Shown here in pieces: positions 33,003 to 52,362 of a stretch of DNA of 64,000 nucleotides (its first letter is position 1; each line of letters begins with the position of its first letter). Below the pieces are notes generated by a model, which worked only from the letters and a program-made list of their open reading frames with translations, ran no database searches and was not told the origin of the DNA. The stretch is from Candidatus Paceibacter sp. GTDB taxonomy: Bacteria; Patescibacteriota; Minisyncoccia; UBA6257; JAGOQP01. The position numbers and the translations under genes were made by a program. The DNA is taken from NCBI GenBank assembly GCA_020724905.1, contig DYGB01000002.1, positions 29,425-93,424 of the forward strand, written 5' to 3'.

Positions 33003-33036
33003 ATATTGCAAGAGTGTTTTATAAAATGAAAACGTC

Positions 33037-33366: not shown

Positions 33367-33411
33367 ATATATAATTGTATCACAGAATTCTCTCTAAAAC
33401 TTATCACGAAG

Positions 33412-33436: not shown

Positions 33437-33623
33437 AATCTATCTGCAAGTCAGGTAATGTTTATTTACCACTCCCTTATTGCATCATGTTGACCCTCTT
33501 TGGGCGTATTGAAAAAGTGACAAAAGTGACAGATTTTTAGAGAAAAGTACAGTTAACTATTATTCATTTTTTGGTATTTATAATAATAAAAGGAGTACAT
33601 TTTTGTACTCCTTTTCTATCTTA

Positions 33624-33995: not shown

Positions 33996-34111
33996 AAAAA
34001 ACCTCCTTTTGAAAATGAAATAAAAAATAAATGAAATGAATGTAAAAGAACGAAACACTACATAGTGTGTAGTGTTTATATAGTAAACTCTATATTGCCA
34101 TTAGTCAATAT

Positions 34112-34723: not shown

Positions 34724-34732
34724 ATTATATAT

Positions 34733-35125: not shown

Positions 35126-35185
35126 GTTGAATAAATCTCTAAAATATGAATCTTATCCTTTCTATTGTCTTCTTTGTTGCTTACA

Positions 35186-35554
35186 CTAATTTCTTACTGC
35201 TACAACATCTATCTCTAAGCTTGCTCCTAAGGGTAATGCGTTAACTTCAATTGCTGTACGAACTGGGAGTGGATGTTTAAAATAATGTAAGTATATTTTA
35301 TTAAGATTAGAAAGATCTTTTAGATCAGTTAGATATAGCTGGACTCTGATTATATCATCGAGGGTAAGCCCAGCTTTTTCTAATAAATTCTTTATATTTG
35401 AAATAATAATATCAAATCTTTCTTCTATAGTGTCTCCCGCCAAATGATCTGAAACCATATGGATTTGCCCAGAAAGAAACACTAAACCGTTTACTTCACA
35501 AGCTCCCGAAAGTGGCGCCCCTGTATCCTGTGAAGATTTATATACTTTTTTCAT
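35186..35554 (-). CDS. ridA: RidA/YjgF-family reactive-intermediate deaminase
   Basis: 122 aa; ...GQIHMV...RVQLYLTD...RTAIEV... typical of YjgF/RidA. Confidence 0.75.
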   Translation of the reverse strand: MKKVYKSSQDTGAPLSGACEVNGLVFLSGQIHMVSDHLAGDTIEERFDIIISNIKNLLEKAGLTLDDIIRVQLYLTDLKDLSNLNKIYLHYFKHPLPVRTAIEVNALPLGASLEIDVVAVRN

Positions 35555-35573
35555 GTACAGATTATACCATAAA

Positions 35574-36269
35574 TTACCTCGGATGTTTTTTCCGAAAATC
35601 TAGAATAAGCAATATAATGCACCATATAGCTACTATCGAAAGCTGAATCATTAATTCCGTCATTCCTCCAGACGTAACTATTGTAAGAGCATCGCTACCG
35701 ATAGAATATACAATAATTCCAACAAGAAAATTCCAGAATAACACGGCAGTAAACGAAGTAATGAAAAATTTTCTAAATGGCATATTTAAGATCCCCGCGG
35801 CTGTGTCTGTAAGGGCGCTCATGCTTGGGAGCCAGTAACTTCCGAAAATAGCCGATGATCCATGTTTGAGAAGTTTTTCTTTAGACTCTTTAATAGATGC
35901 TTTGAGTCCGAATTTTATAAGTAGTTTATGCCATCCATATTTTCCTAGTATATAATTTGCAAGATGTGCGCACATAAGACCGAGTGTACCAATGCATATC
36001 CGTATAAGTGCATCTGAAAGAGAGTTAGCGCTTGCTACGCTCACAAAAATAATGAACACCCCTGGGAAGTATCCGCCAAATAAAAGCATACCCTCAATAC
36101 ATGCGCTTATGAATATAATAATGAGCCCATAAGAATCAAACCATGTGTTGATATGTTCTGTGAGTATTTCTGTGGAAGGAAGATCAAAAAGCCTCCAAGC
36201 AATAAAAAGAGAGAGAAATGTAGCAAGTAGACTAAGGGGTAAGGATAAAAGCTTGAGATAGTATTTCAT
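35574..36269 (-). CDS. DedA/TVP38-family membrane protein
   Basis: Polytopic; GGYFPGVFIIF and SYWLPSMSALTDTAAG motifs resemble DedA. Confidence 0.65.
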   Translation of the reverse strand: MKYYLKLLSLPLSLLATFLSLFIAWRLFDLPSTEILTEHINTWFDSYGLIIIFISACIEGMLLFGGYFPGVFIIFVSVASANSLSDALIRICIGTLGLMCAHLANYILGKYGWHKLLIKFGLKASIKESKEKLLKHGSSAIFGSYWLPSMSALTDTAAGILNMPFRKFFITSFTAVLFWNFLVGIIVYSIGSDALTIVTSGGMTELMIQLSIVAIWCIILLILDFRKKHPR

Positions 36270-36934
36270 TTATTTATTTTTTTACCACTGTGTTGAGGTG
36301 TATATAGTAGAAAAGAATCCTTGTTTTCCTTTGTTTCAGCCAAAAGAAATTGTTCATCAGTTATTGTTCTTGTTTTATACCCGTCGTAAGAAAGACTCTC
36401 TTCTATCTTTGTTAATATAGATTGGTATTTTTCTGATTCCCAGTGGGGAATGATAGAGGTATCTATCATATTTAGTCCCTCATATATTTGTATCGGTGCA
36501 ACAGAAGGGTCGTCTGCAGAGTCAAAGTATTTTAATGTTGGACCAAGAACTATAGCTCCGGCACTATCTCCTCCAACAACAATACCTTCCTCTAGTAATG
36601 CTTTAATCATACCATCAAGTCCACTCTCCTTTAGTGAATATCGAAGCATAAAGGTGTTTCCTCCGTTAAACCACAGAACATCAAATCTTTTTAGGGTTGA
36701 TTCTAGTTCGTTATTATTTTTATAGAAGTTTCTCAAATCTATTTCTTCTACATAAGAGACAATATCTTTAAAGTATAATATCAGCTCTTTTGATTTTTCT
36801 AATCGTTCCTTATCTGGTTTATCATCTTTTGCATTAAGAATAAGGCCTAATTTTATTTTATCTTTGGGTTTATTTATAAAACGTAGGAATGTCTCTACAT
36901 CAGGTATTCTGTATGAAGAAAGGTATAATTTCAT
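36266..36934 (-). CDS. peptidase S51 (dipeptidase E / cyanophycinase-like)
   Basis: FNGGNTF and GGDSAGAIVLG motifs. Confidence 0.7.
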   Translation of the reverse strand: MKLYLSSYRIPDVETFLRFINKPKDKIKLGLILNAKDDKPDKERLEKSKELILYFKDIVSYVEEIDLRNFYKNNNELESTLKRFDVLWFNGGNTFMLRYSLKESGLDGMIKALLEEGIVVGGDSAGAIVLGPTLKYFDSADDPSVAPIQIYEGLNMIDTSIIPHWESEKYQSILTKIEESLSYDGYKTRTITDEQFLLAETKENKDSFLLYTPQHSGKKINK

Positions 36935-36938
36935 AGGT

Positions 36939-37688
36939 TTACTTTAGTTTAAATAAAAATCCATTCCTACTCCAAAACCATAGAGGGGAATGCATGTCTA
37001 TTGGATCTATTCCACTTTTATTTAAAGCCGTTCTCCATTTTTCTGATATATCTTCTCTTTTTAGTTCACTCCCCTCTTTTTCTGTTATTATGCCGAGTTT
37101 TATAGAACATTTTATTATATGTGTATCAGGTGCTATTTCGATCTTATCTCTATTTTTTAGATGTAGGCCGCAATAAGTATCAAGGATAAATGCCCAATAA
37201 TTAAATATTTTAGGACCGGAGAGATACGGGAATTCTTTCTTATGTTTGATTTGAATTTGGTTTTTCAGTGTTAGGAAATCACCTTGTGTTTCTTTTATTA
37301 AATAAGAAAAAGAACCCCAATTTTTTTCTACTGCCTTGGTAATGGATATCCAGGTATCTGTATGCTTATTTGGTTGAAGTGCTAGTTTGTGTTTCAAAAG
37401 AGCTTTCTGGATTTCTCTTCTTTTCTTTTTCTTTATATTTTTTATCTCGAATATAAATTTTGTTGACTTATCATTGTATGTTTTTAACGCAGCCTCCCAA
37501 AGATCATAACTGTTTCTTTGATAATTAAGTGCCATCGGTAACGTGAAATAGGCAATTTTATCTTCCAATTCATTTTTTAAAAATCTTGGATGAGAATCTT
37601 CTGGCATTATTGTTTTTCCCAAATCACCCCTTTTGAATGCCTCTATAAGGATGTGGCATCTATTTTGTAACAATGAGTTATTCTTCAT
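36939..37688 (-). CDS. hypothetical protein (possible HhH-type DNA glycosylase-like)
   Basis: 249 aa; weak resemblance (FPYLSGPKIFNYWAFIL) to HhH glycosylases; not confidently assigned. Confidence 0.35.
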   Translation of the reverse strand: MKNNSLLQNRCHILIEAFKRGDLGKTIMPEDSHPRFLKNELEDKIAYFTLPMALNYQRNSYDLWEAALKTYNDKSTKFIFEIKNIKKKKRREIQKALLKHKLALQPNKHTDTWISITKAVEKNWGSFSYLIKETQGDFLTLKNQIQIKHKKEFPYLSGPKIFNYWAFILDTYCGLHLKNRDKIEIAPDTHIIKCSIKLGIITEKEGSELKREDISEKWRTALNKSGIDPIDMHSPLWFWSRNGFLFKLK

Positions 37689-37692
37689 TTGG

Positions 37693-38238
37693 TTATAATA
37701 GATTCAAGATTTCTGGGAATTCTTTTCCACAAAAATGTCCTTTATCTGAGTATTCGTGGTACGTGGCTTTTGGGAGAGATTTTTTTATTATCTCGAATGA
37801 TGTTAATAGATCCGGAGAGTCGTCTGATGATATAAATACGTGAATCGTGTTAATATCCTGAATGTTAGAGTTTATCGAAAAGTTAAAAAAGTCAGTCGTT
37901 AGTTCGTTTTCAGGATCTAGCCATGGGGCAACAAGGATTATTTTTTCCACCTTAATGTTTGGGTTTTCTGAGAAGAATCGTAGTAAAAACCCGCCTCCAC
38001 AACTGTGTCCGATAACTATACTATTTTTTTCTAATGATTGTTGCTTAAATACCTCAAGCCAATTCTCATATAAAGGATCAAATGGTTTTGGGTACTCAAG
38101 TGCTTGGCATAAACCGTTCTTGAGAGCTATTTGTTTTTGTAACCATGGAAACCAATTTGTATTTGATGGGGATGGTTTTTCTGTTTTATAAAACTCATCT
38201 TTATATGGGGATCCGTGTATAAGTATGGTTTGATTCAT
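37693..38238 (-). CDS. alpha/beta hydrolase, YdeN/RBBP9-like serine hydrolase
   Basis: GHSCGG nucleophile elbow; ~180 aa single-domain hydrolase. Confidence 0.65.
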   Translation of the reverse strand: MNQTILIHGSPYKDEFYKTEKPSPSNTNWFPWLQKQIALKNGLCQALEYPKPFDPLYENWLEVFKQQSLEKNSIVIGHSCGGGFLLRFFSENPNIKVEKIILVAPWLDPENELTTDFFNFSINSNIQDINTIHVFISSDDSPDLLTSFEIIKKSLPKATYHEYSDKGHFCGKEFPEILNLL

Positions 38239-38252
38239 GTTGTCTTGTTACA

Positions 38253-38591
38253 TTAATATAATTTTTCACCGTTGGGAACTTTTTTATCAGGTCTTGCTAT
38301 GACAATATCTCCGTCTTTATCTTTAAAGCCCGTAACTAAACATTCAGAAACATATTTTCCCACTTTTTTTGGTGGAAAGTTAACAACGCCGATGACTTGT
38401 TGTCCCAACAACTCTTCTTTTGTGTAATGATGAGTTATTTGACTACTTGACGTTTTTATTCCAAGTTCTTCTCCAAAATCTATTTTCATTTTATATGCAG
38501 GATCCTTAGCCTCAGGAAAATCTTCTATTTCTACAATAGTTCCAACGCGTAACTCTATGTTCTCAAATTCCTCCCAAGTGATTGTTTTCAT
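38253..38591 (-). CDS. csaA: tRNA-binding protein (CsaA/EMAP-like OB fold)
   Basis: 112 aa; LLGQQVIGVVNFPPKKVGKYVSECLV characteristic of the tRNA_bind domain. Confidence 0.7.
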   Translation of the reverse strand: MKTITWEEFENIELRVGTIVEIEDFPEAKDPAYKMKIDFGEELGIKTSSSQITHHYTKEELLGQQVIGVVNFPPKKVGKYVSECLVTGFKDKDGDIVIARPDKKVPNGEKLY

Positions 38592-38606
38592 GGTATTATT
38601 ATATCA

Positions 38607-39266
38607 TTGATGAAGAATAAATTTCCAACCATTATATTCTGGAGCATCATCACGCTACTTCCCATTCTTGGAATAATTTTTGGCATTCTCGATCCAGAAT
38701 CGTTCGAGCATGGGAAGCAATTAGCACAAGAATATATCATTCCTTTTGGTGTTTTTGCTCCTTTTGTGTTTATCTTTATCCAAGCACTTCAAGTTATTAT
38801 CACTCCCATTAGTCACTATAGCGTTGGTATTATTGGTGGGTTTATTTGGGGACCATACATAGGAGGAGTGTTGAATTGGACTGGTCGTATGATAGGACAT
38901 GCAATTGCATTTATTATTGCTCGGAAAATAGGAAAAAAGCTTGCTTTGAAATTTGTAAGTTCTCAACAGATAGAGAAATATGACAAATATGTTTCTAATA
39001 AATCTCTATTTCTATTTTTGTTTTATTTTCTCCCTCTTTTTCCTGATGATGAATTAAGTTATCTTGCAGGACTTTCAAAAATGAAGGCAAAATCATTTAT
39101 TGTTGCAAATATATTTGGGCATATTGGCGGAAGCTTTAGTCTTGCATATATTGGGGCTGGAATAGATGAGTACAATCCATTTTTCTGGATATTAATTACT
39201 CTCACTTTAATTGGATTTGTTATGTTTTGGTTTGTGGTAATTAGGAATAATAGGTCATTTGAATAA
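38607..39266 (+). CDS. TVP38/TMEM64 (DedA-related) membrane protein
   Basis: Polytopic; conserved ...DDELSYLAGLSKM...FIVANIFGHIGG region. Confidence 0.65.
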   Translation: MMKNKFPTIIFWSIITLLPILGIIFGILDPESFEHGKQLAQEYIIPFGVFAPFVFIFIQALQVIITPISHYSVGIIGGFIWGPYIGGVLNWTGRMIGHAIAFIIARKIGKKLALKFVSSQQIEKYDKYVSNKSLFLFLFYFLPLFPDDELSYLAGLSKMKAKSFIVANIFGHIGGSFSLAYIGAGIDEYNPFFWILITLTLIGFVMFWFVVIRNNRSFE

Positions 39267-39303
39267 AATAAAAGCGCAGATATATTATCCACGCTTTTTT
39301 GCG

Positions 39304-39708
39304 TTATTTCTTCAAGGAATCAGGTAATAGACAAGTATGTGAATCCCAAATCCATATTCTTTTCTTGTTCAAATTAAATACTTTACTAAAGAAACCGCAT
39401 ACGAGTTGACTTTCCGGCTCCTGATCTAATTCAAATTGAATTGAGTTTAGTTTGGTAATGGGGATTGGATTTTCTTTCATATCTAGATATTCAACATTTC
39501 TCAAAATGAAATGTGTGGTGGCTACTATGTCAACTATATCCCCAACCTTAATTTCCTCTATTGTGTTGGTGAGCGTTGCACAAATACGCTTGTAAGGTCT
39601 TGGTACTTCCTCTCTGGGTAATTGTGCTTCTGATATTATGACGATGCTCTCATCATATTCTAGTCTTTCGTTTCCGAAATAATCATAGAAAAACAATTTG
39701 TCTTTCAT
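39304..39708 (-). CDS. hypothetical protein
   Basis: 134-aa ORF; no family recognised. Confidence 0.4.
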   Translation of the reverse strand: MKDKLFFYDYFGNERLEYDESIVIISEAQLPREEVPRPYKRICATLTNTIEEIKVGDIVDIVATTHFILRNVEYLDMKENPIPITKLNSIQFELDQEPESQLVCGFFSKVFNLNKKRIWIWDSHTCLLPDSLKK

Positions 39709-39773
39709 AAATCCTCCTTGATTTTTATTGTGCTATATATTCTATATCATATATGAACATCCTTGTAAATCTA

Positions 39774-40232
39774 TTACAAAAGTTGTTTATCAAGCGGTGG
39801 GTCTGAGAAATATGTTCTTACTATAAAACCTTTTTCCATTAATTCAATCATTTCCATGTAAGGTCTTTTTATAAGCAGAAATTGTGGTTGGGGAAGATAT
39901 TTCTTTTTAAAGTCTTGATAATTAGAAACAGTAAAGTCCGCGTCCCCTCTTTCTGGTTTGGTTACATCAGGAACCCTTATCTTGAGAATTTTTAATATTC
40001 CAGCATTAGTTTCTATATCTCTAATATGATATATATATCCCGATTTTGTTTCTTTTATTCTTTTCCCAATTTTTTTCGTAGCACTTTCCAGTTCTGTATA
40101 TTCAGATTCTGATTGTGAAAATATACACGCATAATTCAAAGATGCATTAACTTCATCTGTGTATTTATCTTTAAGATATGATGCTTGTAAAACTATATTT
40201 TTAACAATGTCTAGTAATTCTTTTTCGTTCAT
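39774..40232 (-). CDS. hypothetical protein
   Basis: 152-aa ORF; no family recognised. Confidence 0.4.
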   Translation of the reverse strand: MNEKELLDIVKNIVLQASYLKDKYTDEVNASLNYACIFSQSESEYTELESATKKIGKRIKETKSGYIYHIRDIETNAGILKILKIRVPDVTKPERGDADFTVSNYQDFKKKYLPQPQFLLIKRPYMEMIELMEKGFIVRTYFSDPPLDKQLL

Positions 40233-40240
40233 ACTATTTT

Positions 40241-40669
40241 TTATTCATCTATTCCCCATTGTACCATTTCTGTGAATCGAATATAGAACCCATGGGGATC
40301 AACAACTCTAAAGTCTTTACTTCCCCATTTCTTTAATGTTAGTTCTTGTGCTATGGGGATTTTTTCTACACTTTTTATAGCTTTCCATAATAGCTCTATA
40401 TTGGATACTGGTATAGTTATTTCAACACCATATCCTCGAGGAGTGTCTTTTGAAATACTTTTGAAATAAGAGTGGCTATATATTTTCTCTGTATTTCCAT
40501 AGAAATTTAGATATGTTGATCCAAGATCATCATTTCTTTCTAGAATGAGGTAATCATTTTTTTCTTCTTTTTCGTTTCTTGCCACAGAGAAACCAAAATG
40601 TGTATAAAATTCAATTGTTTTTTTAAAATCAGGGACGTGGAGTTCTATAACAAGATTATTTTCCAGCAT
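40241..40669 (-). CDS. VOC-family (glyoxalase/bleomycin-resistance fold) protein
   Basis: LVIELHVPDFKKTIEFYTHFGFSV N-terminal beta-alpha-beta-beta-beta module. Confidence 0.5.
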   Translation of the reverse strand: MLENNLVIELHVPDFKKTIEFYTHFGFSVARNEKEEKNDYLILERNDDLGSTYLNFYGNTEKIYSHSYFKSISKDTPRGYGVEITIPVSNIELLWKAIKSVEKIPIAQELTLKKWGSKDFRVVDPHGFYIRFTEMVQWGIDE

Positions 40670-40795
40670 ATCAGTATTAAGTTTATTATATAAATAGTAT
40701 CACACATTATTTCTTTCAATAACTGTATATGTTGACATATATCCATATATGATGTATCATCTCTTTAGACACATTAATAATACAAGGAGCGTATA

Positions 40796-41341
40796 ATGAA
40801 CATTAAAGAGCTTGCTTCAACTGTTACTCAAACTACTTCGATGTTCCACAGTGTTTCATCGTTTGCAACTCGTGTTTTTGGTCTTCTTCTCGTTTTTCAT
40901 CGAGACGTTCTTAAGATGGAGGAGTGGAGTAAGAAAACTGGTGGATATTTTACTCTTGCTCAGGATGATGGAACTCCTCTTCTAACGTTTCGCATTGGAG
41001 CAGTTATTCCAGAAAAGACAGATAAGTATTTTCATCTTTCTTTGGAAAAAGCCAGACGTCTTGGACAAAACAAAAGTCATGGTTCTAGTTTTAAAAGTCG
41101 TGACGGAAGAAAGAGATGGGGAGGAGCTGTTCGTGGAAGAGGTCTTAATAATATTCTTTCGTTTTCTGGATTAACTGAAGTAGGTGATATGATTCTTACG
41201 TATTTTGTAGCAGAAAAACTCGGTTTTAGATCACCAGAAGAAATCAAAGCTCTTGCCGAAGGTGAAAACTTCTATGGAGAATATTCAAGGTTTAAAGATT
41301 TTATCAGTGGTTTTGAAACAACTTTAGATTTTCTACAATAA
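40796..41341 (+). CDS. hypothetical protein
   Basis: 181 aa with AAGGAG RBS and a TTGACA/-10-like promoter upstream; terminator downstream. Confidence 0.5.
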   Translation: MNIKELASTVTQTTSMFHSVSSFATRVFGLLLVFHRDVLKMEEWSKKTGGYFTLAQDDGTPLLTFRIGAVIPEKTDKYFHLSLEKARRLGQNKSHGSSFKSRDGRKRWGGAVRGRGLNNILSFSGLTEVGDMILTYFVAEKLGFRSPEEIKALAEGENFYGEYSRFKDFISGFETTLDFLQ

Positions 41342-41345
41342 GTAT

Positions 41346-41375
41346 AAGCCCCTAATATTACAGGGGCTTTTTTTA
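41346..41375 (+). terminator. rho-independent terminator
   Basis: AAGCCCCT-aatattac-AGGGGCTT followed by TTTTTTT. Confidence 0.65.
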
Positions 41376-41735
41376 AATAAAAACCACCGCATACTACTTT
41401 AGACTATTTTGCGGTGGATGAATTATTTATTCTATTCTTAATCTTTGTTTTTGTTAGAATAAATAACTTTTGGAATAAATGTAGAATAAGAAAATAATTG
41501 AATTTCCAGATTCTTACAAATGTTTTATGAGGATGTGATACTTCTTTCCAAAAACCATTGAGTGAATCAAAGGCTTTCTTTTTAAAATCTTTTTTTAACA
41601 CAAATCCTCCTATGCATTATACTACTTCTATCATACTATACCATACGTTTTCTGTCAATATTTTAAGTACTTTCTAATTATATAGATGGTGTGTTAAAAT
41701 TAATAAATGTTCTTTAATATAATGCGAGGAAATAT

Positions 41736-41915
41736 ATGAAACAGCAAATTCTATACATTGATCCTGAAATGAATCGTTTAATTGGTTTGTTGGCACAGAA
41801 CGCCACTCTTATTAGTGCGTCGGGGGTAGCTTTTCCAATCCCCTACATAAGAATAGAGAAGCGTCTTTTTCGTAAGTCTTTTAATATTATTTTAAAATTT
41901 TTAGAGACATCTTAA
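41736..41915 (+). CDS. hypothetical small protein (59 aa)
   Basis: ORF with GAGGA RBS 6 nt upstream; it falls below the ORF-track length cutoff. Confidence 0.3.
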   Translation: MKQQILYIDPEMNRLIGLLAQNATLISASGVAFPIPYIRIEKRLFRKSFNIILKFLETS

Positions 41916-41925
41916 TGAAAGGAGG

Positions 41926-42114
41926 TTGATTATGTCTGTTACAGTACCCATTCCTGATTGGATTATACAGACTTTGTTCATTGCATTAATCGTTTGTATT
42001 ATTTGTCTCCTTTTAGTTGAGAGATCAAATGATATTTTTGCTATTATTTTCTATATTTCTCACTTTGTTTGTATAGTTATCGTTGGTTGGCTTTCAAAAA
42101 AAGCTGGAGAATAA
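41926..42114 (+). CDS. hypothetical small membrane protein (62 aa, 2 TM)
   Basis: Strong RBS AAAGGAGG, two hydrophobic helices, terminator immediately downstream. Confidence 0.5.
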   Translation: MIMSVTVPIPDWIIQTLFIALIVCIICLLLVERSNDIFAIIFYISHFVCIVIVGWLSKKAGE

Positions 42115-42129
42115 AATAAAAGCCCCTAA

Positions 42130-42164
42130 ATTAATTATAGAAGGGGCTTTTTATATATTTCCTA
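42130..42164. terminator. bidirectional rho-independent terminator
   Basis: AAGCCCCT...AGGGGCTT hairpin followed by a T-run; lies between convergent genes. Confidence 0.6.
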
Positions 42165-42167
42165 TTT

Positions 42168-42689
42168 TTATGTTGATAGATTTATCAGTACTGAGTTAAT
42201 GAATTCAATCTTTCTTGCATAGTATTTTCTAACACTAATTCCATTTCCAGCTTCTTTTAATTCTTTGTATTCTTTTAATGCCCGTGGATTGGATTTGAGA
42301 TAATTTTCAAAGACCAAACTACGTTGCCAGTCAGGGCTACTTTCATTAATAAGAAATACATCAATGTGTTTTTTGTCTACTTCTGTTGCAAAACGAGCTC
42401 TTTTTAAAGGATATAAACTTTTTGGATTACCGAACAATTCCGTTAAAAGTAGCAAGTGGAAGTCGAAAGCCTTTTTAGAAACTGGGATAAATATGTCAAC
42501 TTCGTCTTGACCCGATATTCCTAAACTAGAGGCACCACAATGTTTTATTTCAACATCTTTAAGTTTCGCTTCTATTACAGATTTAATTTTTTCAAATTTA
42601 TTTATACAGGTCGGGTCAAAAGGAATGATTTTAACTACCTTAGTGTTTGATAAATGGTTAATCCATTGTTTTTGATCTTTGGTAAGCAT
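42168..42689 (-). CDS. GrpB-family protein (nucleotidyltransferase fold, UPF0157)
   Basis: IKHCGASSLGISGQDEVDIFI matches the GrpB IEHIGSTSVPGL..DIDI core. Confidence 0.6.
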   Translation of the reverse strand: MLTKDQKQWINHLSNTKVVKIIPFDPTCINKFEKIKSVIEAKLKDVEIKHCGASSLGISGQDEVDIFIPVSKKAFDFHLLLLTELFGNPKSLYPLKRARFATEVDKKHIDVFLINESSPDWQRSLVFENYLKSNPRALKEYKELKEAGNGISVRKYYARKIEFINSVLINLST

Positions 42690-42767
42690 AGTTAATGTAA
42701 TTGTTCTATTTTTATGCTTTCTCTTTAGTTTTTTTGAACATACTTTTCTTTGTGTAGCTTTTATCGT

Positions 42768-43175
42768 TTATGATTTTAATATTTGTTTTAATTCTTCCAA
42801 AGCTTCATCAAATGTGGACACAACTAGTCCTACTTTCTTAACGAAATTAATAGACCATTTAGGATTCCTATTTTCTTGCCAAATAATAATCATTTTGTCA
42901 CAAAAATCACCCGGTTTTTCTGTGTTATTGGCATAGAAATATCCAATTTCAATCCACGTTGCTTCTGACGGTGCGATTCCTGGATTGGCAATGAGAATGT
43001 CCGCGTTCTTAATTCCATTCAGGTCATCGGGGAAATATGTGTTTGGTGAAGTCTGGTCAGAATCAACCTCCCAATCATAAAAGTCACACTCTTGTACTGC
43101 TTTAAAGGGTTTCTTCCAATTACTATCGTGTTCATTGGATTGACCGGCTAGATAAACTTTTAATTTCTTCTTCAT
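42768..43175 (-). CDS. nucleoside 2-deoxyribosyltransferase-family protein
   Basis: VYLAGQ start, catalytic-type ...ILIANPGIAPSEATWIEIGY region. Confidence 0.6.
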   Translation of the reverse strand: MKKKLKVYLAGQSNEHDSNWKKPFKAVQECDFYDWEVDSDQTSPNTYFPDDLNGIKNADILIANPGIAPSEATWIEIGYFYANNTEKPGDFCDKMIIIWQENRNPKWSINFVKKVGLVVSTFDEALEELKQILKS

Positions 43176-43192
43176 TCTAACTTTTAAAGTCG

Positions 43193-43750
43193 TTATTTAA
43201 TTATTTCAAGAATAGCTGATAATGCTTCCGGAAGCTTATCAAAACCTGCTGAACCGTTAAGATGCTTTCCATTTGGAATGAGTATGAGTTTGCCACCAAG
43301 TTTTTCAGCTGTTTCTTTTGCATCAGATACCGGAACGAAAGGATCATTGTCTCCGTGTATTACGATCACTTTTGGTGACTTGTTTTTTATCTTCATCCAA
43401 TCAAAATCGTCTAAAAGAAATTCTCGTATCTTTTCATTTTCATTTTGATGACATGGTGCGCTTGCTATAATAACACCTTTTATATTAGGTGAGTCATATT
43501 TTTCAAGATATCGTAAGATTGCTGTTCCACCCAAAGAATGCCCCACTAGATAAATATCATCTTCTTTGTTTTTTGTAATATGTCTTTCTATTTCTTCTAG
43601 CCATTCACTGAGCTTAGGGGCTTGTGGTGATGGCATTGGGAGCGAACAGGCATAAATGTCCTGTTTTTCGAGTTCGCTCATTAAATATGGTCTCCAGCCT
43701 CCATTTGGAGATCCTTCAAATCCATGGATAAGGAATACTTTTTTATTCAT
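43193..43750 (-). CDS. alpha/beta hydrolase, YdeN/RBBP9-like serine hydrolase (paralog of 37693-38238)
   Basis: GHSLGG nucleophile elbow; same 185-aa architecture. Confidence 0.65.
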   Translation of the reverse strand: MNKKVFLIHGFEGSPNGGWRPYLMSELEKQDIYACSLPMPSPQAPKLSEWLEEIERHITKNKEDDIYLVGHSLGGTAILRYLEKYDSPNIKGVIIASAPCHQNENEKIREFLLDDFDWMKIKNKSPKVIVIHGDNDPFVPVSDAKETAEKLGGKLILIPNGKHLNGSAGFDKLPEALSAILEIIK

Positions 43751-43796
43751 ACGTTTAAATTATACCATAAAATTTTACCTAAATAATATGCATACA

Positions 43797-43828
43797 AATA
43801 AAAAGCCGCTCAGATAATCTTGAGCGGC
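43797..43828 (-). terminator. rho-independent terminator (minus strand)
   Basis: GCCGCTCA-gataatct-TGAGCGGC hairpin followed on the minus strand by a T-run. Confidence 0.6.
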
Positions 43829-43838
43829 GACAAGCTTT

Positions 43839-44366
43839 TTATTGTAAACATAAGAAAAAATGAACTTCTACAGAAGATGCATTAACAGTGGCGTAATGAA
43901 ATCTAAATTCTGCAATACCTTTAAAGAATTTGTTGATTTCTTTCAGCATTTTAAAAATTTCTTTTCCACTTTTCTTTCCTTTCGGATTAAAGTGAAAGTG
44001 AAAAATTGGAATGTCAATGTAAGTTCCTTGGGAGTCATTCCAGAACTCATTATAGTCTGAGGCAGTACCATTAAATGGATCTACATAACTACGAATGAAT
44101 AGTTCCAATAGTCGTTTTGTTTTTCCATCTTGACGAGATTTAAATCTCTTATTCAGGAATGCTCGATGTTTTTTGTATCTCTTCGTTTTGGGAATAAGTG
44201 AAAAGAGATGTCTTATTAGCTTTTTAAGCATTCTCTCTTGAGTGTCTGCGATTTTCACCAAGAACGGTTTTGCACGTTCTTGGTTTTCCTTTATTTTACC
44301 CATTTCTTCTGAAAGTATATCTTTGAAAAATGGATTTTTTTCAGGAATATAGATAAGACGGTTCAT
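43839..44366 (-). CDS. hypothetical basic protein
   Basis: 175 aa, Lys/Arg-rich; no family recognised. Confidence 0.4.
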   Translation of the reverse strand: MNRLIYIPEKNPFFKDILSEEMGKIKENQERAKPFLVKIADTQERMLKKLIRHLFSLIPKTKRYKKHRAFLNKRFKSRQDGKTKRLLELFIRSYVDPFNGTASDYNEFWNDSQGTYIDIPIFHFHFNPKGKKSGKEIFKMLKEINKFFKGIAEFRFHYATVNASSVEVHFFLCLQ

Positions 44367-44736
44367 TCTTATTTCTCCTATGAAGTTGTCAAATACTAGC
44401 TAAAAATAGGATAACATACACAGCAGTATCTGTAAAGGACAAGGAATTTATTTTTCTAAGAACTTTCTTTGGGTTGGCTCTATTTGGCTGGGTTTTTCGT
44501 ATTAGAACTTTATATCTTATCCGCATGTTGAGGATATTTTTCTCTCAGTTTTTCTTTTTCTTCTTGAGAGAGTGACCTAAGTTTAAGACGTCCTCCAATA
44601 TGCTCTGGAAGAGTGAGGTTCTCCGCTGAGGTGAGGGAGTGAAAAGTAAGTATGCCCCCAACCTCCCTTGGGAGCCGTTGGAGAATTTGAAGAGTAGGTT
44701 GATGTTGTTGGATAAGAAGATAATGCTAACTGATTG

Positions 44737-45786
44737 TTAGTTTATCCATATATCAATATTAAGTTTCTGATTAGTAACTTTTTCAAAATAAGTTGCAGCA
44801 ATCGCTATCCCAACAGCACTCAACTGTAACTTATTCATTAAAGTTTTACTAAAGGAGTCAAAAATTTTACTACCTGATTTTGTTTTATTTTTTAAATCTT
44901 CCTCAACTTGCGCTGTAGACGGAATCATTTTTCCGTAAATATCTTTTAATTCTTTCTTGTCTTCTTCACTAAAATTATTCTTATCTAAATAATCTTCTAG
45001 AACTTTTTGGTTTTGTGTTTTTATTACTAAATAATCATCTTCGTTTGTGGTAATAAGCGCTTTTGCTTCATTGGATAGTTTTAATTGATCAATCTTATCT
45101 TTCTCTAATCCTCTCATAAAAGGTAGCGTATAGTTCTTTTGAAAAATCTGAATAAGATTCCTGCTTAAAGCAGAAGATGATGCACATCTTGTATATTCTA
45201 AATATTGAAACTGAGAATTAGTTAAAGATGTTCCAAGAAAAGGAGTCACCATAGTTTCAAGAAAATTATCAAAATCAGCAATAGTATTTACTGGACTATT
45301 TAACGCATATAAACATATAAAAACCATAGCAAGTATATTCAGATGATCTTTAGTCAATTTGTCTGCGGTTTCGATGGACTCGTTAAAAACAATTCTTTTG
45401 ATATCTTCCTTGTCATTAGAAATTCTTTTACCCAAAAGAATGGCGAGGTTCTCATGCAATTCAACTGAGTCACTTCTGCTAGCTGCTAGTGCCGCTTTTT
45501 TAGTGATAAATTGAAAATCTGGACTGTTAATTACACTTTTTACTTCTTCCACATCAGACATGTAAGATTTTAGTTTGTCTTTTAATGCCTCGAGGAAAGA
45601 AGATTGATTTTCTGCGATTTTATCTTTTACAGGTTGGGGCAACTCTCCAAAAACTGAGCTCAGTAATTCTTTGGATAAATCTTCCACAGAACCCACTGTT
45701 AAATTAACTGTCTGATTCACAGCTATGGAATCCGCTTGAATATTAGTGGAATTATCTCTCGTCTTTTGTTTCTTTATCTCTGACAT
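44737..45786 (-). CDS. hypothetical protein (349 aa, helical; N-terminal segment repeats the tail of the upstream small TM protein)
   Basis: Long ORF overlapping the upstream 66-aa TM gene by 35 nt; no catalytic motif recognised. Confidence 0.5.
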   Translation of the reverse strand: MSEIKKQKTRDNSTNIQADSIAVNQTVNLTVGSVEDLSKELLSSVFGELPQPVKDKIAENQSSFLEALKDKLKSYMSDVEEVKSVINSPDFQFITKKAALAASRSDSVELHENLAILLGKRISNDKEDIKRIVFNESIETADKLTKDHLNILAMVFICLYALNSPVNTIADFDNFLETMVTPFLGTSLTNSQFQYLEYTRCASSSALSRNLIQIFQKNYTLPFMRGLEKDKIDQLKLSNEAKALITTNEDDYLVIKTQNQKVLEDYLDKNNFSEEDKKELKDIYGKMIPSTAQVEEDLKNKTKSGSKIFDSFSKTLMNKLQLSAVGIAIAATYFEKVTNQKLNIDIWIN

Positions 45787-45952
45787 TTATATTTAAATTA
45801 TCACTTTGTATGTTTATACTGTTATTTCTACTCCTTTGCTTTTTTATTATTTTATTACCACCCCAAAATAACGTGGCAAATCCAATTAATATACCAACTA
45901 GCGTAAGAAATCCTCCTGCAGTTTTTATATATAAAATTAAATCATCAAACAT
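45752..45952 (-). CDS. hypothetical single-pass membrane protein (66 aa)
   Basis: One TM helix then a basic/Asn-rich tail KKQRSRNNSINIQSDNLNIN. Confidence 0.45.
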   Translation of the reverse strand: MFDDLILYIKTAGGFLTLVGILIGFATLFWGGNKIIKKQRSRNNSINIQSDNLNINVRDKETKDER

Positions 45953-46083
45953 CGTAGTTTTTATATTTTATCAAAAAACTGCCCAGTTGGACAGTTTTTT
46001 GTCTGGCTACAGCTCTCAGCTTATATGCAGTGTCAGAATAGGTTCTTGGGCACACGACCCTCTCAGGTCACTGTGTTTGAAGA

Positions 46084-46107
46084 TACTGGCGTTTCCGTGT
46101 TAGAACT
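46084..46107 (+). repeat. degenerate copy of the tRNA-Gln 3' end (att-like direct repeat B)
   Basis: TACTGGCGTTTCCGTGTTAGAACT matches repeat A at 19/24 and the tRNA-Gln 3' end in the same orientation. Confidence 0.5.
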
Positions 46108-46190
46108 TCTAAGCCATCTGTGGATAAGTGCCTACACTTTCGGTTTCTATTCGTTTATAATATAATTATAGTTAAATAATATTTATAACA

Positions 46191-47762
46191 ATGTCTACTC
46201 TTACAAAAAAACAAAAACAAGTCTTTGATTTTATAAAGAGTTATACATCGGAAAATGGTATCTCCCCTACTATAGAAGAAATCCGTAAAGGATTAAAACT
46301 GAAGGCTGTTTCTACAGTACATGAACATATAAAAACTCTTGAGGTAAAAGGGTTTATTTCAAGAGATGATGATTTTTCTAGGAACTTAAGCATAAAAAAG
46401 AACATTATATCTGTGGTACATATTCCTATCCTTGGTCATATAGCTGCGGGCCAACCAATTGAGGCTATAGAAGATTTTCAGGACACCGTATCTATTGTTG
46501 ATTCAAGAATAAAGAGTTCTGAAGGATATTATGCCCTAAGGGTTGTTGGTAATAGTATGATCGATGAAGGAATTTTTGATGGAGATATTGTTGTTATTAA
46601 AAGACAGTCCGTTGCTGACAATGGACAAACTGTTGTTGCGATAATTGATGAAAATGAGGCAACTCTTAAGAAATTATATAAGGAAAGAAGACGTTTTAGA
46701 TTAGAGCCAAGAAATCCTAATATGGAACCTTTATTTAGAACCCATGTGGAGGTTCGAGGAGTTGTAGTAAAAGTTATTAGTAATATTCAAGATGAAGTTG
46801 AGACAATTGCGAAAACAAAACACGGATTTAGAACATTGGATTTGTTTGCAGGTGTTGGGGGTATACGAATAGGTTTTGAAAATGCGGGGTTTAAAACTGT
46901 ATTTGCAAATGATTTTGAAGAAAAATGTGAATATACGTATAACCTAAATTTTAAAAAAACAAAGCTGGTGGTTGAGGACATAAGGAAAATAGGAATTGAT
47001 GATTTGCCAGAATTTGATTTTTTGTTGGGTGGATTCCCCTGCCAAGCCTTTTCCATCGCAGGTTATAGAGAAGGTTTTAATGATAAAAAAGATCGAGGCA
47101 ATTTATTTTTTGATATAGCAAGGATTATTAAAGCCAAAAGACCCGAAGGATTCTTACTTGAGAATGTTAAGAATTTAAAAAGCCATGATCAAGGAAGAAC
47201 TTTTGAGGTTATAGAAAAAACTTTAAAGGATCTCGGATATCATATTCATACAAAGGTTTTAAACACTATGGAGTATGGGAATATTCCTCAAAATAGAGAA
47301 AGAATTTATATAGTTGGATTTAAAAATAAGAACTATTTCGATAGATTTGAATTCCCCAAACCAATCAAATTAACAAAGAAGGTTGTTGACTTATTAGAGA
47401 AGGATGTTCCTGAAAAATATTACTATAATAACAAACCTCTTTACGAAAGAATAAAAAACGATGTGAAAGATAAAAACAAAGTATATCAATGGAGAAGAAA
47501 GTATGTCAGAGAAAATAAAAGTGGCGTATGTCCCACATTAACAGCAAATATGGGAATGGGTGGACACAATGTTCCAATAATTAGGGATAATAAAGGAATA
47601 CGGAAACTTACTCCATTAGAATGCTTTAGGCTCCAAGGCTTTCCTGAGGATTATAAACTTCCTAATGTTGCTGATTCTGTTTTATATAAGCAAGCTGGTA
47701 ATTCCGTTAGTGTTCCGGTTGTAGAAGCTATAGCGAAACAAATAAAAAAAATTATGAAGTAA
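46191..47762 (+). CDS. LexA repressor (wHTH + S24 autopeptidase) fused in-frame to a DNA cytosine-5 methyltransferase
   Basis: Residues 1-200 align along the whole E. coli LexA (LTKKQKQVFDFI; cleavage site IAAGQP; LRVVGNSM Ser; TVVAIIDENEATLKKLYK Lys). Residues ~205-523 carry C5-MTase motifs I DLFAGVGG, IV GFPCQAFS, VI ENV, VIII QNRERIYIVGF, X GNSV. The ORF is continuous. Confidence 0.8.
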   Translation: MSTLTKKQKQVFDFIKSYTSENGISPTIEEIRKGLKLKAVSTVHEHIKTLEVKGFISRDDDFSRNLSIKKNIISVVHIPILGHIAAGQPIEAIEDFQDTVSIVDSRIKSSEGYYALRVVGNSMIDEGIFDGDIVVIKRQSVADNGQTVVAIIDENEATLKKLYKERRRFRLEPRNPNMEPLFRTHVEVRGVVVKVISNIQDEVETIAKTKHGFRTLDLFAGVGGIRIGFENAGFKTVFANDFEEKCEYTYNLNFKKTKLVVEDIRKIGIDDLPEFDFLLGGFPCQAFSIAGYREGFNDKKDRGNLFFDIARIIKAKRPEGFLLENVKNLKSHDQGRTFEVIEKTLKDLGYHIHTKVLNTMEYGNIPQNRERIYIVGFKNKNYFDRFEFPKPIKLTKKVVDLLEKDVPEKYYYNNKPLYERIKNDVKDKNKVYQWRRKYVRENKSGVCPTLTANMGMGGHNVPIIRDNKGIRKLTPLECFRLQGFPEDYKLPNVADSVLYKQAGNSVSVPVVEAIAKQIKKIMK

Positions 47763-47768
47763 GTTTTT

Positions 47769-48818
47769 CTATTTTTCTGTTTTATAGAATTTATCAAACT
47801 CTTTGATCATTTTATTCGTAGAATCTTTAGCAAATATCTCAAAAGAGTTCTTTATCGCTAGATTCTCATTCCAACTTGAGCTTCTTTTAAATTCTGAAAG
47901 CTCTACTCTTACATAACCTGGGGACACCTTCTTTCCGTTAATAGAAATAGACCTTGGGGTTTTTAAATAAAAAGACCCTTTGTTTTGTTTAATGATTGTA
48001 ACTTCTTTTAAATTACCTTCAATAGCAATTGGTAAAAATTTAGAGTCACGAAAATTATAAGTGAATTTCTTGTTCTCCACTCTTATAGGTTTGCTTTTCC
48101 CTGCCCTTACTACTTTATTTACATTTGAGACACTTTTTACATACCATGGGCTAACCTTTGGCTTACAGGATATAGTATGTTCCAAAATTTGGTTTTTAGT
48201 GTATGTACCTATTAATCTGAAACTTCCTATGGTTTTTGCTGGATGGGGTTCTTCTGGATTTATAATGTTTGAATTCTTATCTGATTTTATAAAGATGGGG
48301 TTAATCTTTAGTAAGTCTAAATTTTTTGGATTAAAAACTTCTTTATCAAAAATAGTAGTTAAATAATCTGGGGATAGATCAGATTCAACGAAAACATAGA
48401 AATCATCAATCATTTGTGGTTGCCTGACTCCCATTAAGTATTGTCCTTTTCTAAATACTTTAACTTCTACTCGAGGACGTTTTTTTATAGTTTCCCATTT
48501 CCCATCGTTGTATTGAACAAAAGGGATTATTCTTCTCTTATCCTTTATCCCAATAACATCTGGCGCATTTTTTTCTGATGAATTGTTGTACAAGAAATAA
48601 TCAGGAATAACACTATATGGTTTATCTTTAAAAAGAACGTCAAAAACGACAGTTTCAGCAAGCTTATTAAGCCACCGTTCGATAAATCCTCCGATTAAAT
48701 CTCTTTTAGAGGAAGTCCCTTGGAGATGAAGTGAATCGGAGTTATATTTCATTAATATGAAATATATTGTTCTAATCAGTTCTTCTTTTGTTACTTCTAT
48801 TTTGGGATATTTACTCAT
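47769..48818 (-). CDS. putative Type II restriction endonuclease (PD-(D/E)xK-like), cognate to the adjacent C5-MTase
   Basis: 349-aa ORF convergent and 6 nt from the MTase stop; PDVIGIKDKR...VEVKVFRK resembles a D...ExK core; no other family. Confidence 0.5.
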   Translation of the reverse strand: MSKYPKIEVTKEELIRTIYFILMKYNSDSLHLQGTSSKRDLIGGFIERWLNKLAETVVFDVLFKDKPYSVIPDYFLYNNSSEKNAPDVIGIKDKRRIIPFVQYNDGKWETIKKRPRVEVKVFRKGQYLMGVRQPQMIDDFYVFVESDLSPDYLTTIFDKEVFNPKNLDLLKINPIFIKSDKNSNIINPEEPHPAKTIGSFRLIGTYTKNQILEHTISCKPKVSPWYVKSVSNVNKVVRAGKSKPIRVENKKFTYNFRDSKFLPIAIEGNLKEVTIIKQNKGSFYLKTPRSISINGKKVSPGYVRVELSEFKRSSSWNENLAIKNSFEIFAKDSTNKMIKEFDKFYKTEK

Positions 48819-49064
48819 TAAGATAGAGCATATACCCTTATTGACATAAAATCAATTTAGCAGTAAAGAATCACCTTCTTTAAAGTATGCATGGGCAGTA
48901 TAAATGACTTGCTTCCGTTTTGTTTTACGTACTCATATTAAACCTATTCTATCTTTAACAAGCTCTAGGGGTTGTAAATTAGTTTGTCCGTTCGGAATTA
49001 TTTGAGTGGTAAACAAATTATCCCTTCCCTAATTCATATTACCATTAATAAAACCAGCAACAGT

Positions 49065-49529
49065 TTATGTTTCTTCTATGATTTTTTTAACAACTTTTTT
49101 GGATATGTTTAATAAGGGGCTGAGATTCAACCAGTATTTTCCATCTTCGCGTTGAGAAAGTATCTCTAATTCACCAAAACCAATTCTTAGTCCAATCCCA
49201 ATTTCCATGTAACTATTATGAGTAAGTTTGTTCCTATATCCATTTCTTAGTGTTTCGACTTGGTCATTTGAAAGACTCAGATTGTAGTAACTAGGATCAT
49301 TCAAAATTTGGAAATGTGTCTTTGTATCATTCCCACCTCCTTTTATAATACTACCAATATTGTCTACTATTGAAAGAAGAATTAACGCCGATGGATATCC
49401 ATAACATCCAGTATATCCATTCCAGCGAGGATCGGAAGATTTATCAAAATTTATACAATATTCCGCAACTTCAATCAGCTCTTTTAGAGCTTCCTTCTGC
49501 ATCTCTGACTTTGATAAATGAAGTGCCAT
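49065..49529 (-). CDS. hypothetical protein
   Basis: Start placed at Met 49529. The longer track ORF (to 49649) is read-through across the tRNA-Gln gene. Confidence 0.45.
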   Translation of the reverse strand: MALHLSKSEMQKEALKELIEVAEYCINFDKSSDPRWNGYTGCYGYPSALILLSIVDNIGSIIKGGGNDTKTHFQILNDPSYYNLSLSNDQVETLRNGYRNKLTHNSYMEIGIGLRIGFGELEILSQREDGKYWLNLSPLLNISKKVVKKIIEET

Positions 49530-49567: not shown

Positions 49568-49641
49568 TGGCTGCCGGACTAGGATTCGAACCTAGATACC
49601 ATGCTCCAGAGGCATGTGTCCTGCCATTAGACGATCCGGCA
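49568..49641 (-). tRNA. tRNA-Gln (anticodon CUG), CCA encoded
   Basis: Cloverleaf: acceptor UGCCGGA/UCCGGCA with U1:A72 and G73 (GlnRS identity elements), D-stem GUCU/GGAC, anticodon stem CAUGC/GCAUG with loop CUCUGGA, T-arm CUAGG-UUCGAAU-CCUAG. Confidence 0.85.
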
Positions 49642-49694: not shown

Positions 49695-50627
49695 TTAGAG
49701 AATTGAAAATGTGGTGTAGGGAGAAACTATCTTTCCTATACTACATTCACATTTCTTAACCATTGATGAATGAGGGCCTTTTTCTACATTTGGAAGAAAA
49801 TATTGTATCGCTTCTTTTTCTCCCTGTGCACAAATAGAGACACTTCCATCATTGTTATTTCTAACAAATCCTTTGAGGTTATATTGTTGAGCTCTTTTTT
49901 CTATGAAACGTCTCATTCCAACACCTTGTACAATTCCTTCTAGATGAGCTGATAGTTCCAAAGGATCATTAAGAAATTCTTCTAGGGAAAGTGACCTTTC
50001 TATAGTGTAGTCTCCTATAGCTGTTCTTGTAAGAGCAGAGAGATATCCTTTAGATGAAAGTCTTTCTCCTAGATCTCTTGCCAAACTCCTCACATAGAAT
50101 CCTGAAGATACAAAGATATCAAGTATAAGTGTATAGGTCTCGTCTTCATTCTTTTGAAGAGATTGTATGGTATATGAATAAAAAGATACTATACGAGGCT
50201 GAGGTGATACTTCTTTCCCTTCTCGAGCTTTTTTATATGCAGCCACACCTCCCCTCTTTATTGCTGAGTATATAGGAGGTATCTGTTGTGTCTGATCTTT
50301 AAGACGTTCAAGCTCTCTTTGTATATCTTTTTTATCTATAGGAGGCACCTTTGTATCTTTGATAACTGTTCCTGTTATATCGTCAGTATCTGATGAGGCT
50401 CCAATACATATATGAGCTCTGTATGACTTATCTTTTCCTCGTAGGATAGTATCTAGTTGTTTTGTGTATTCTCTCCCTATCCCCACCATCAATACTCCTT
50501 CTGCGAATGGATCAAGTGTTCCTCCATGTCCTATCCTTTCCTTTGTTTTGAGTTCTCTTTGAATACTACGTAAAAACCCAGCAGAGCTAGGGCCTTTGGG
50601 TTTGTTCATGATAAAAAGACCACGCAT
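49695..50627 (-). CDS. truB: tRNA pseudouridine(55) synthase TruB fused to a C-terminal acylphosphatase-like domain
   Basis: TruB catalytic motif GHGGTLDP; the C-terminal 85 aa carry both acylphosphatase signatures (IVQGVGMRRF; GFVRNNNDGSV) in place of the usual PUA domain. Confidence 0.8.
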   Translation of the reverse strand: MRGLFIMNKPKGPSSAGFLRSIQRELKTKERIGHGGTLDPFAEGVLMVGIGREYTKQLDTILRGKDKSYRAHICIGASSDTDDITGTVIKDTKVPPIDKKDIQRELERLKDQTQQIPPIYSAIKRGGVAAYKKAREGKEVSPQPRIVSFYSYTIQSLQKNEDETYTLILDIFVSSGFYVRSLARDLGERLSSKGYLSALTRTAIGDYTIERSLSLEEFLNDPLELSAHLEGIVQGVGMRRFIEKRAQQYNLKGFVRNNNDGSVSICAQGEKEAIQYFLPNVEKGPHSSMVKKCECSIGKIVSPYTTFSIL

Positions 50628-52302: not shown

Positions 52303-52362
52303 ATACAGGTATAAGTATAGTACATTTAGCGTATAAAAAGAAGAGAGGTGTGGATAATTTTT

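Follow-up and report, generated by a model that had tools for sequence, protein, structure and literature searches.

A LexA-methyltransferase fusion family and its possible role as a damage-responsive controller of restriction-modification in Patescibacteria

What might a LexA repressor do as the N-terminal part of a DNA methyltransferase (MTase)? The question is raised by a gene of Candidatus Paceibacter sp. (Patescibacteriota) on contig DYGB01000002.1 of assembly GCA_020724905.1, within a stretch of 64,000 nt (positions 29,425 to 93,424 of the forward strand; hereafter the window, in whose numbering positions are given). Its open reading frame (ORF) encodes a LexA winged helix, an S24 domain and a C5-cytosine MTase, and its 3' end faces that of a probable restriction endonuclease gene. 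We propose, with a probability of roughly 60%, that the two genes form a Type II restriction-modification (R-M) cassette, in which the N-terminal LexA of the C5 MTase acts as a built-in controller that makes methylation inducible by DNA damage. Four observations carry this reading: the architecture of the fusion, its conservation, an operator-like repeat whose sequence varies in step with the recognition helix, and the restriction-enzyme setting. From these we infer DNA binding, cleavage, the trigger of cleavage and the direction of the physiological effect.

The fusion protein and its relatives

Residues 1-196 of the fusion match solved LexA structures in the Protein Data Bank (best match 2e-30, Thermotoga maritima LexA 3k2z), and the protein scores 184 bits against the NCBIfam LexA equivalog model TIGR00498, whose cut-off is 111. 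In an alignment with E. coli LexA, A86-G87, S122 and K160 of the fusion correspond to A84-G85, S119 and K156. The C-terminal part is covered by PF00145 over model positions 1-324 of 324 (3e-94) and is also matched by TIGR00675 (dcm). M.HhaI aligns with the MTase domain from end to end (3e-62), and the best PADLOC match of the fusion is MTase_II (2e-126). The domains, catalytic residues and coordinates are listed in Table 1.

Mean conservation, taken as the frequency of the commonest residue at each position, was 0.83 in the winged helix, 0.82 in the S24 domain and 0.88 in the MTase including its target-recognition region among 192 distinct family members; it was only 0.55 in the linker (aa 200-212). 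The cleavage-site and dyad residues were invariant or at least 90% conserved in these members, and the PCQ and ENV motifs were invariant, the catalytic motifs of the MTase being complete. Judged from these residues, the LexA cleavage machinery of the fusion is intact and under selection. An AlphaFold model of the full fusion was uninformative on domain arrangement (predicted local distance difference test score 57.9; shallow alignment, 74-86% identity).

A preliminary description of this DNA, made by reading the sequence, had called the gene a continuous fusion of a LexA carrying the Ala-Gly site and Ser/Lys dyad with a complete C5 MTase, and all three parts of that description were borne out. 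Independent Patescibacteria assemblies yielded more than 190 distinct relatives of full length, with identities of 65-97%. All of the 120 best database clusters (from NCBI, JGI, ENA and Logan assemblies) were proteins of about 525 aa, 73-100% identical, that had the three domains of the fusion. When one genome per species was scanned, at least 556 stretches were confirmed; the best 80 of these were all full-length and all from Patescibacteria metagenome-assembled genomes (Nomura-, Zambryskii-, Vogel-, Giovannoni-, Taylor-, Staskawicz-, Moran-, Uhr- and Shapirobacteria), and the fusion ORF was intact in 78 of those 80 species genomes. The full fusion was not found in viral contigs, where the matches were a stand-alone MTase (65% identical) and a stand-alone LexA (53%). 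An assembly error or frameshift that brought a lexA and a dcm gene together had no evidence in its favour and is refuted as an explanation, because the same uninterrupted architecture recurs in more than 190 distinct sequences from NCBI, JGI, ENA and Logan assemblies; its probability is close to nil.

Relatives of the LexA part were collected by an exhaustive HMMER search with aa 1-205 alone as the query. Among the 60 best representatives at 50% identity, 48 were at least 250 aa long with an N-terminal LexA (35 of at least 400 aa and 13 of 250-399 aa), and nearly all matches ranked 91-150 were LexAs of about 200 aa. Pfam found LexA_DNA_bind and Peptidase_S24 in all of 59 long representatives, followed by C-terminal domains of every MTase class: N6_N4_Mtase (31), Eco57I-type (7), D12 Dam-type (5), N6_Mtase (5), MmeI-type (4), C5 (3) and TaqI_C (2). 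A metagenome scan with the LexA-domain alignment added 80 loci. There, 55 of 59 complete ORFs were fused to MTases with DPPY, SPPY, NPPY or PCQ motifs, and at least three of the four unfused LexAs lay directly upstream of a separate MTase gene, as does a second LexA-like gene at locus L058. A second gene adjoined tightly in 48 of 50 metagenome loci, in 40 of them convergently. The sampled partners of these other fusions were endonucleases of the MvaI/BcnI, TaqI and BsaWI families or a second MTase.

These relatives bear on whether the LexA part is ever cleaved. The S24 domain might be kept only to dimerise an autoregulating MTase of the SsoII kind, with no physiological cleavage and no link to DNA damage. 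Autoregulation of a C5 MTase through an N-terminal DNA-binding region indeed needs no cleavage (M.SsoII; PMC3978073, PMC6100179), and the C-terminal domain of LexA is its dimerisation domain. However, residues that serve catalysis only would drift were cleavage unused, and in the 59 representatives, at most about 50-57% identical, there is no variation in the Gly of the Ala-Gly site, the Ser or the Lys, while at least 90% keep the Ala; the 192 family members show this as well. We consider retention for dimerisation alone quite unlikely.

The preliminary description had added that a widespread, already described family with this architecture would remove its novelty. The architecture did prove very widespread in sequence databases, but no paper describing it was found: full-text literature searches returned no LexA-MTase fusion, the study of the Patescibacteria SOS network by Sanchez-Osuna, Barbe and Erill (2017, Environ Microbiol 19:3465) lying outside their reach. 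Common in databases, the design seems to have gone unrecognised. Public or source annotation names the relatives of the fusion either 'transcriptional repressor LexA', from the Prokaryotic Genome Annotation Pipeline (PGAP), or 'DNA (cytosine-5)-methyltransferase 1'.

The promoter of the fusion gene

About 90 nt upstream of the fusion are conserved across the family at the nucleotide level. Family promoters read, in order, cTGTGGATAAC, a gap of about 6 nt, TTGnCn (-35), TTTCGG-N5-(T)TTCGG, TATAAT and a leader of about 30 nt; one of them, at L079, has a perfect TTGACA-N17-TAAACT. The repeat between the hexamers is the candidate operator. A position weight matrix (PWM) built from 74 family promoters scored 23.6 at the repeat in the window, and in 762 kb of flanking DNA it hit 72 own promoters and only two other places. 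Only one further match occurred in the window, within murG, and is ascribed to chance. Throughout the LexA-MTase promoters the element is a direct repeat whose period is always 11, placed either in the -35/-10 spacer or, inverted, just past the -10 hexamer.

The sequence of the repeat followed that of the recognition helix in all 126 promoters compared. Helices reading S-T-x-H-(E/Q)-H went with TTCGG in 89 of 89 cases and those reading S-T-x-H-(F/Y/H)-(H/Y) with TTCTA or TTCGA in 37 of 37; in a finer variant, K-S-T-x-H-Q-H went with GTTCGG. The residue that separates the two classes, residue 45, aligns with Glu45 of E. coli LexA, which touches operator bases. Since the F/Y/H class falls into at least four separate blocks of a rough neighbour-joining tree, the association of helix and repeat is not one inherited event. 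Of all the evidence, this covariation argues most strongly that the LexA domain of the fusion binds the repeat and autoregulates its own gene. A LexA operator in the gene's own promoter is thus predicted computationally, from the spacer repeat, its recovery at own promoters and the helix covariation, in line with the earlier suggestion that the LexA part is a controller.

Is the fusion then simply the master SOS LexA of the cell, with an MTase attached, repressing a genome-wide SOS regulon along with itself? It exceeds the NCBIfam LexA equivalog cut-off, PGAP names it accordingly, and no other LexA is encoded in the window. Against this, the operator repeat occurs, the few matches elsewhere aside, only at the fusion's own promoter: no second operator that would mark a wider regulon was found in the 64-kb window and the 762 kb of flanks. 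Moreover, single contigs carry two LexA-MTase modules, fused or split (L136, 2630-4228 and 5272-7095; L058, 170-2368 and 4983-6569; L013 and L048, on one Vogelbacteria contig), an indication that one genome can house more than one cassette of this kind. Every MTase class is represented among the partners of the LexA clade, which is also associated with mobile, swapped R-M cassettes in non-syntenic contexts, and operator classes vary between cassettes, as those of private controllers would. A master SOS role is very unlikely.

The element at the 5' end of the conserved promoter region, the TGTGGATAAC box, occupies this position in about 60 of 80 family promoters. The box equals the DnaA-box consensus, TTATCCACA, of which the 9-mer TGTGGATAA is the reverse complement. 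Both operator classes of LexA-MTase promoters include the box, which may face either way, and of 19 extra copies 13 were intergenic. The window holds three copies of TGTGGATAA, all intergenic (chance expectation 0.69). As a LexA operator, TGTGGATAAC was ruled out, since neither helix class nor orientation restricts its occurrence and it is also present in unrelated intergenic regions. It is probably the site of a separate factor, whose identity is suggested by the consensus, and TGTGGATAA looks like the site of a general regulator in these genomes.

Two further observations concern this region. Positions 45972-46140 hold a perfect hairpin, AAAAAACTGCCCAGTTGGACAGTTTTTT, possibly a terminator in both directions, followed by about 115 nt of GC-rich, unannotated sequence between AT-rich gene starts; Rfam and folding searches of the GC-rich stretch (45960-46160) gave no family match and a minus-strand z-score of only -2.1. 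The stretch might encode a small RNA or mark where the cassette ends. Many LexA-MTase genes in loci L097-L176 have GTCAA(T) 8-20 nt before the start codon, without a Shine-Dalgarno sequence; the C5 family has GCAAT there.

Endonuclease partner and exchange of cassette parts

Pfam, NCBIfam and PADLOC scans of the 349-aa partner gave no match. Its N-terminal part is a PD-(D/E)XK domain with D87, E118 and K120, and its C-terminal domain is beta-rich with no fold assigned. The gene converges on the fusion across a gap of 6 nt, and the earlier recognition of a D...ExK-like neighbour is upheld, the pair constituting a Type II R-M cassette.

The preliminary description had also advised a search for a LexA-type operator shared by the upstream regions of the MTase gene (M) and the endonuclease gene (R), and had pointed to AT-rich elements on both sides. 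Neither lead found support. The repeat is confined to the M promoter: the best PWM score upstream of R was only -1.6, and the two upstream regions had no 8-mer in common. The AT-rich TAAATA-A-TATTTA element (46173-46185) is specific to the window and not conserved in the family. With neither a shared M/R operator nor the AT-rich palindrome conserved, both candidates were dropped. The endonuclease gene has its own, unrelated promoter. Its upstream region (48819-49064) contains no ORF of at least 50 aa and no XRE-type C gene.

Table 1. Features of the cassette, its control region and related sites in the window
Feature	Position	Strand	Remarks
LexA-S24-C5 methyltransferase fusion gene	46191-47762	+	single uninterrupted ORF, 523 aa
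Winged helix, aa 1-64	46191-46382	+	Pfam LexA_DNA_bind (PF01726), 9e-18
S24 domain, aa 79-193	46425-46769	+	Pfam Peptidase_S24
Predicted cleavage site, Ala86-Gly87	46446-46451	+	alignment with E. coli LexA
Ser122, nucleophile	46554-46556	+	alignment with E. coli LexA
Lys160, general base	46668-46670	+	alignment with E. coli LexA
Variable linker, aa 197-212	46779-46826	+	
MTase, aa 213-520	46827-47750	+	Pfam DNA_methylase
Catalytic Cys284 of the PCQ motif (aa 283-285)	47040-47042	+	
ENV motif, aa 324-326	47160-47168	+	
TGTGGATAA(g) box	46119-46127	+	just 5' of -35 region; reverse complement of the DnaA-box consensus
Putative -35 hexamer TACACT	46133-46138	+	17 nt 5' of TATAAT; family consensus TTGnCn
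Putative operator	46138-46154	+	11-bp-period direct repeat TTTCGG-ttcta-(A)TTCGT; occupies -35/-10 spacer
-10 hexamer TATAAT	46156-46161	+	TATAAT or TATACT in nearly all family promoters
TGTGGATAA copy	20309-20317		211 nt upstream of ribonucleotide reductase large-subunit gene (17408-20098, -)
TGTGGATAA copy	52349-52357		47 nt upstream of ftsE
Probable Type II restriction endonuclease, 349 aa	47769-48818	-	
PD-(D/E)XK domain, N-terminal ~170 aa	about 48309-48818	-	
Endonuclease D87	48558-48560	-	
Endonuclease E118	48465-48467	-	
Endonuclease K120	48459-48461	-	
Endonuclease upstream region	48819-49064	-	without LexA-type operator, without C-protein gene

In nearly all loci of the family, the fusion has a gene directly at its 3' end, at a distance of -22 to +11 nt, and in all but two of these it is convergent. 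The partner genes belong to at least seven mutually unrelated families: c0 (about 187 aa, 27 loci, Pfam RE_Bsp6I), c1, the type in the window (about 350 aa, 13 loci), c2 (about 388 aa, 10 loci, Pfam RE_NgoFVII_C), c3 (280-320 aa, 9 loci), c4 (about 150 aa, 7 loci, Pfam PDDEXK_5), c5 (about 280 aa, 6 loci) and c6 (about 348 aa, 5 loci); c1, c3, c5 and c6 have no Pfam match. One further locus has an insertion sequence element in the partner position. Fusions that are 95-97% identical have unrelated partner families at the same tail-to-tail junction in four pairs of loci (L026/L030, L061/L067, L063/L071 and L019/L033), and a locus had the same partner family as its nearest neighbour in only 24 of 76 cases. 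These near-identical fusions with unrelated partners indicate that the endonuclease is often replaced beside a fixed MTase. The genes flanking the cassette likewise differ between loci, which indicates that the cassette is mobile.

Sister loci thus resemble the Bsp6I and NgoFVII R-M systems in pairing the same MTase with an RE_Bsp6I or an RE_NgoFVII_C endonuclease, although the window's endonuclease is outside both Pfam families. Bsp6I recognises GCNGC and NgoFVII recognises GCSGC. By analogy with these sister-locus partners, our guess is that GCNGC or GCSGC might be the recognition sequence here.

About 17 of 75 sister loci have a conserved XRE-type helix-turn-helix ORF, C-protein-like and ending in ...QSYVSKIESGQRRFDVLQLKEFAKLYKKSLDFF, just upstream of R (for example L017, L020, L023, L026, L028, L030, L033, L038, L039, L046 and L076, with endonucleases of several unrelated families); the window has none. 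Control in those cassettes would be double, with LexA acting on M and a C protein on R.

The cassette lies in a block of about 16 kb (33000-49500) with a GC content of 31-35%, against 38-41% elsewhere, which also holds many small hypothetical genes and may be an integrated island; the block ends beside tRNA-Gln(ctg) (49568-49641, minus strand). The divergent upstream neighbour (44737-45786, minus strand, 349 aa) is Vpar_1526 in the source's precomputed Pfam annotation, had no match in our Pfam and PADLOC scans, and is not kept beside the fusion in other loci. Beyond the tRNA lies truB (49695-50627, minus strand), to which the Pfam annotation of the source assigns a fused acylphosphatase domain at the C-terminus; P0004, the closest relative of the LexA-MTase fusion, is also within a few kb of a truB.

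Proposed control circuit and known systems

In the circuit that we propose, the fusion protein would dimerise through its S24 domain, and its winged helices would bind the 11-bp-period repeat TTTCGG-N5-TTCGG in the -35/-10 spacer and repress synthesis of the MTase itself. In a naive cell the repressor would be absent and the promoter fully on, so that the genome would be methylated first. RecA filaments on single-stranded DNA, which could arise when DNA is damaged, when a phage attacks or when under-methylated chromosomal sites are cut by the cell's own endonuclease, would stimulate self-cleavage at Ala86-Gly87; that the protein cleaves itself is the most likely reading, given that neither the Ala-Gly site nor the Ser/Lys dyad varies. 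Cleavage would free the DNA-binding domain, derepress the gene and yield more MTase. The circuit would amount to a damage-triggered 'restriction alleviation', or anti-autoimmunity feedback, which would help the cassette to become established in a new host and would also rescue the cell from self-restriction.

The same cleavage could have the opposite result, that of damage-triggered suicide or abortive infection; the preliminary description had put forward a candidate suicide module. Cleavage would then destabilise, mislocalise or inactivate the MTase, newly made DNA would remain unmethylated, and the endonuclease would kill the damaged or infected cell. The invariant cleavage machinery is compatible with such an outcome, and so is the N-terminal fragment, which would end in ...Ile-Ala-Ala like the degron of E. 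coli LexA. Proteases of E. coli degrade both LexA cleavage fragments. The endonuclease promoter, lacking a LexA operator, would also keep R being made. The location of the operator argues the other way: because it is within the M promoter, the simplest result of cleavage is more MTase, and thus protection rather than killing, loss of the DNA-binding domain derepressing M and replenishing the full-length enzyme. In addition, the MTase lies beyond a variable linker, 125 residues downstream of the cut, and should stay active, and a hair-trigger for suicide at a single-copy MTase seems costly for hundreds of symbionts with tiny genomes. The suicide reading is less parsimonious than control of the MTase, and we regard it as unlikely.

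Several points nevertheless weigh against damage-inducible control of the MTase. Sequence is the basis for everything said here on DNA binding, self-cleavage, dependence on RecA, the specificity of methylation and the activity of the endonuclease. If the S24-MTase fragment were degraded, the outcome would be reversed. A motif search of the 64-kb window found no recA, uvrA or other SOS gene, so the link to RecA rests on knowledge of the family. The second half-repeat (ATTCGT) and the -35 hexamer (TACACT) are degenerate in the window. No avoidance of three possible recognition sites was seen in the window, a sample too small to be informative on this, with observed/expected ratios of 1.18 for GCNGC, 1.43 for GCSGC and 1.21 for GCGC. 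LexA dimers, finally, usually bind palindromes. Direct-repeat LexA operators are documented only for some lineages, such as the GTTC-N7-GTTC of Alphaproteobacteria, whose geometry the fusion operator resembles (PMC8565304).

Among known systems, the C5 MTase M.SsoII/M.Ecl18kI represses its own promoter through its N-terminal 71 residues (PMC3978073, PMC6100179, PMC3695355). It is the nearest functional precedent, sharing an N-terminal DNA-binding region, a flexible linker, a site in the M promoter and repression of M. M.EcoRII, M.MspI and M.ScrFIA are also autoregulating C5 MTases. The M.SsoII type, however, has a helix-turn-helix of about 70 aa that binds an inverted repeat located between divergently transcribed M and R genes and serves to activate R as well, whereas the fusion has a LexA of about 200 aa with a catalytic S24 domain, a direct repeat in the promoter spacer, convergent genes and an R gene without a site. 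The LexA-MTase design, moreover, spans C5, N4 and N6 MTases. The fusion is thus not a member of the SsoII-like autoregulating MTases, though it would be alike in autorepression of M.

With canonical LexA (E. coli; T. maritima 3K2Z), the fusion shares the domain order, the Ala-Gly site and the Ser/Lys dyad, and its own promoter likewise has a predicted operator; it differs in being covalently joined to a DNA MTase, or sharing an operon with one, and in belonging to a mostly fused similarity group distinct from the LexAs of about 200 aa. C proteins such as C.PvuII and C.AhdI are likewise transcription factors dedicated to R-M with private operators, and their incompatibility groups are analogous to the helix-matched operator classes of LexA-MTase cassettes, where specificity classes would limit cross-talk. 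C proteins, however, are XRE-type helix-turn-helix proteins of about 80 aa that usually time the expression of R, without a signal-sensing domain. Lambda CI and SetR of SXT are S24-family, RecA*-cleavable repressors of mobile elements. They resemble the fusion in that a RecA*-cleavable repressor is wired to a selfish or mobile module and not to repair genes, but they stand alone and control lysogeny or transfer, whereas here the repressor is part of the enzyme that it would regulate and the module is R-M.

A broader claim, to which we give somewhat less than an even chance, is that Patescibacteria have a dedicated LexA branch as a standard controller of Type II R-M, with private, helix-matched operators, which would read RecA* directly and let DNA breakage boost methylation. 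How Type II R-M systems avoid killing the host when methylation lags, as after DNA damage, after repair synthesis or in a new host, is a long-standing question. To our knowledge, none of the known answers (C proteins, autoregulating MTases and antisense RNAs) senses DNA damage, and we know of no equivalent, for Type II systems, of an anti-autoimmunity or restriction-alleviation circuit fed by damage. If our reading is true, a RecA*-cleavable LexA-MTase would couple the capacity for methylation to the universal signal of DNA damage within a single polypeptide.

Other consequences follow from the family as a whole. The pairing of E/Q45 with TTCGG and of F/Y/H45 with TTCTA or TTCGA would provide a helix/operator code for LexA-type winged helices on direct repeats, and near-identical MTases beside unrelated endonucleases are an unusually clean natural case of endonuclease replacement with a fixed MTase. 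Because family members are named 'transcriptional repressor LexA', counting them as SOS regulators may distort inference of the SOS response in Patescibacteria. The fusion makes damage-coupled control of restriction-modification directly testable.

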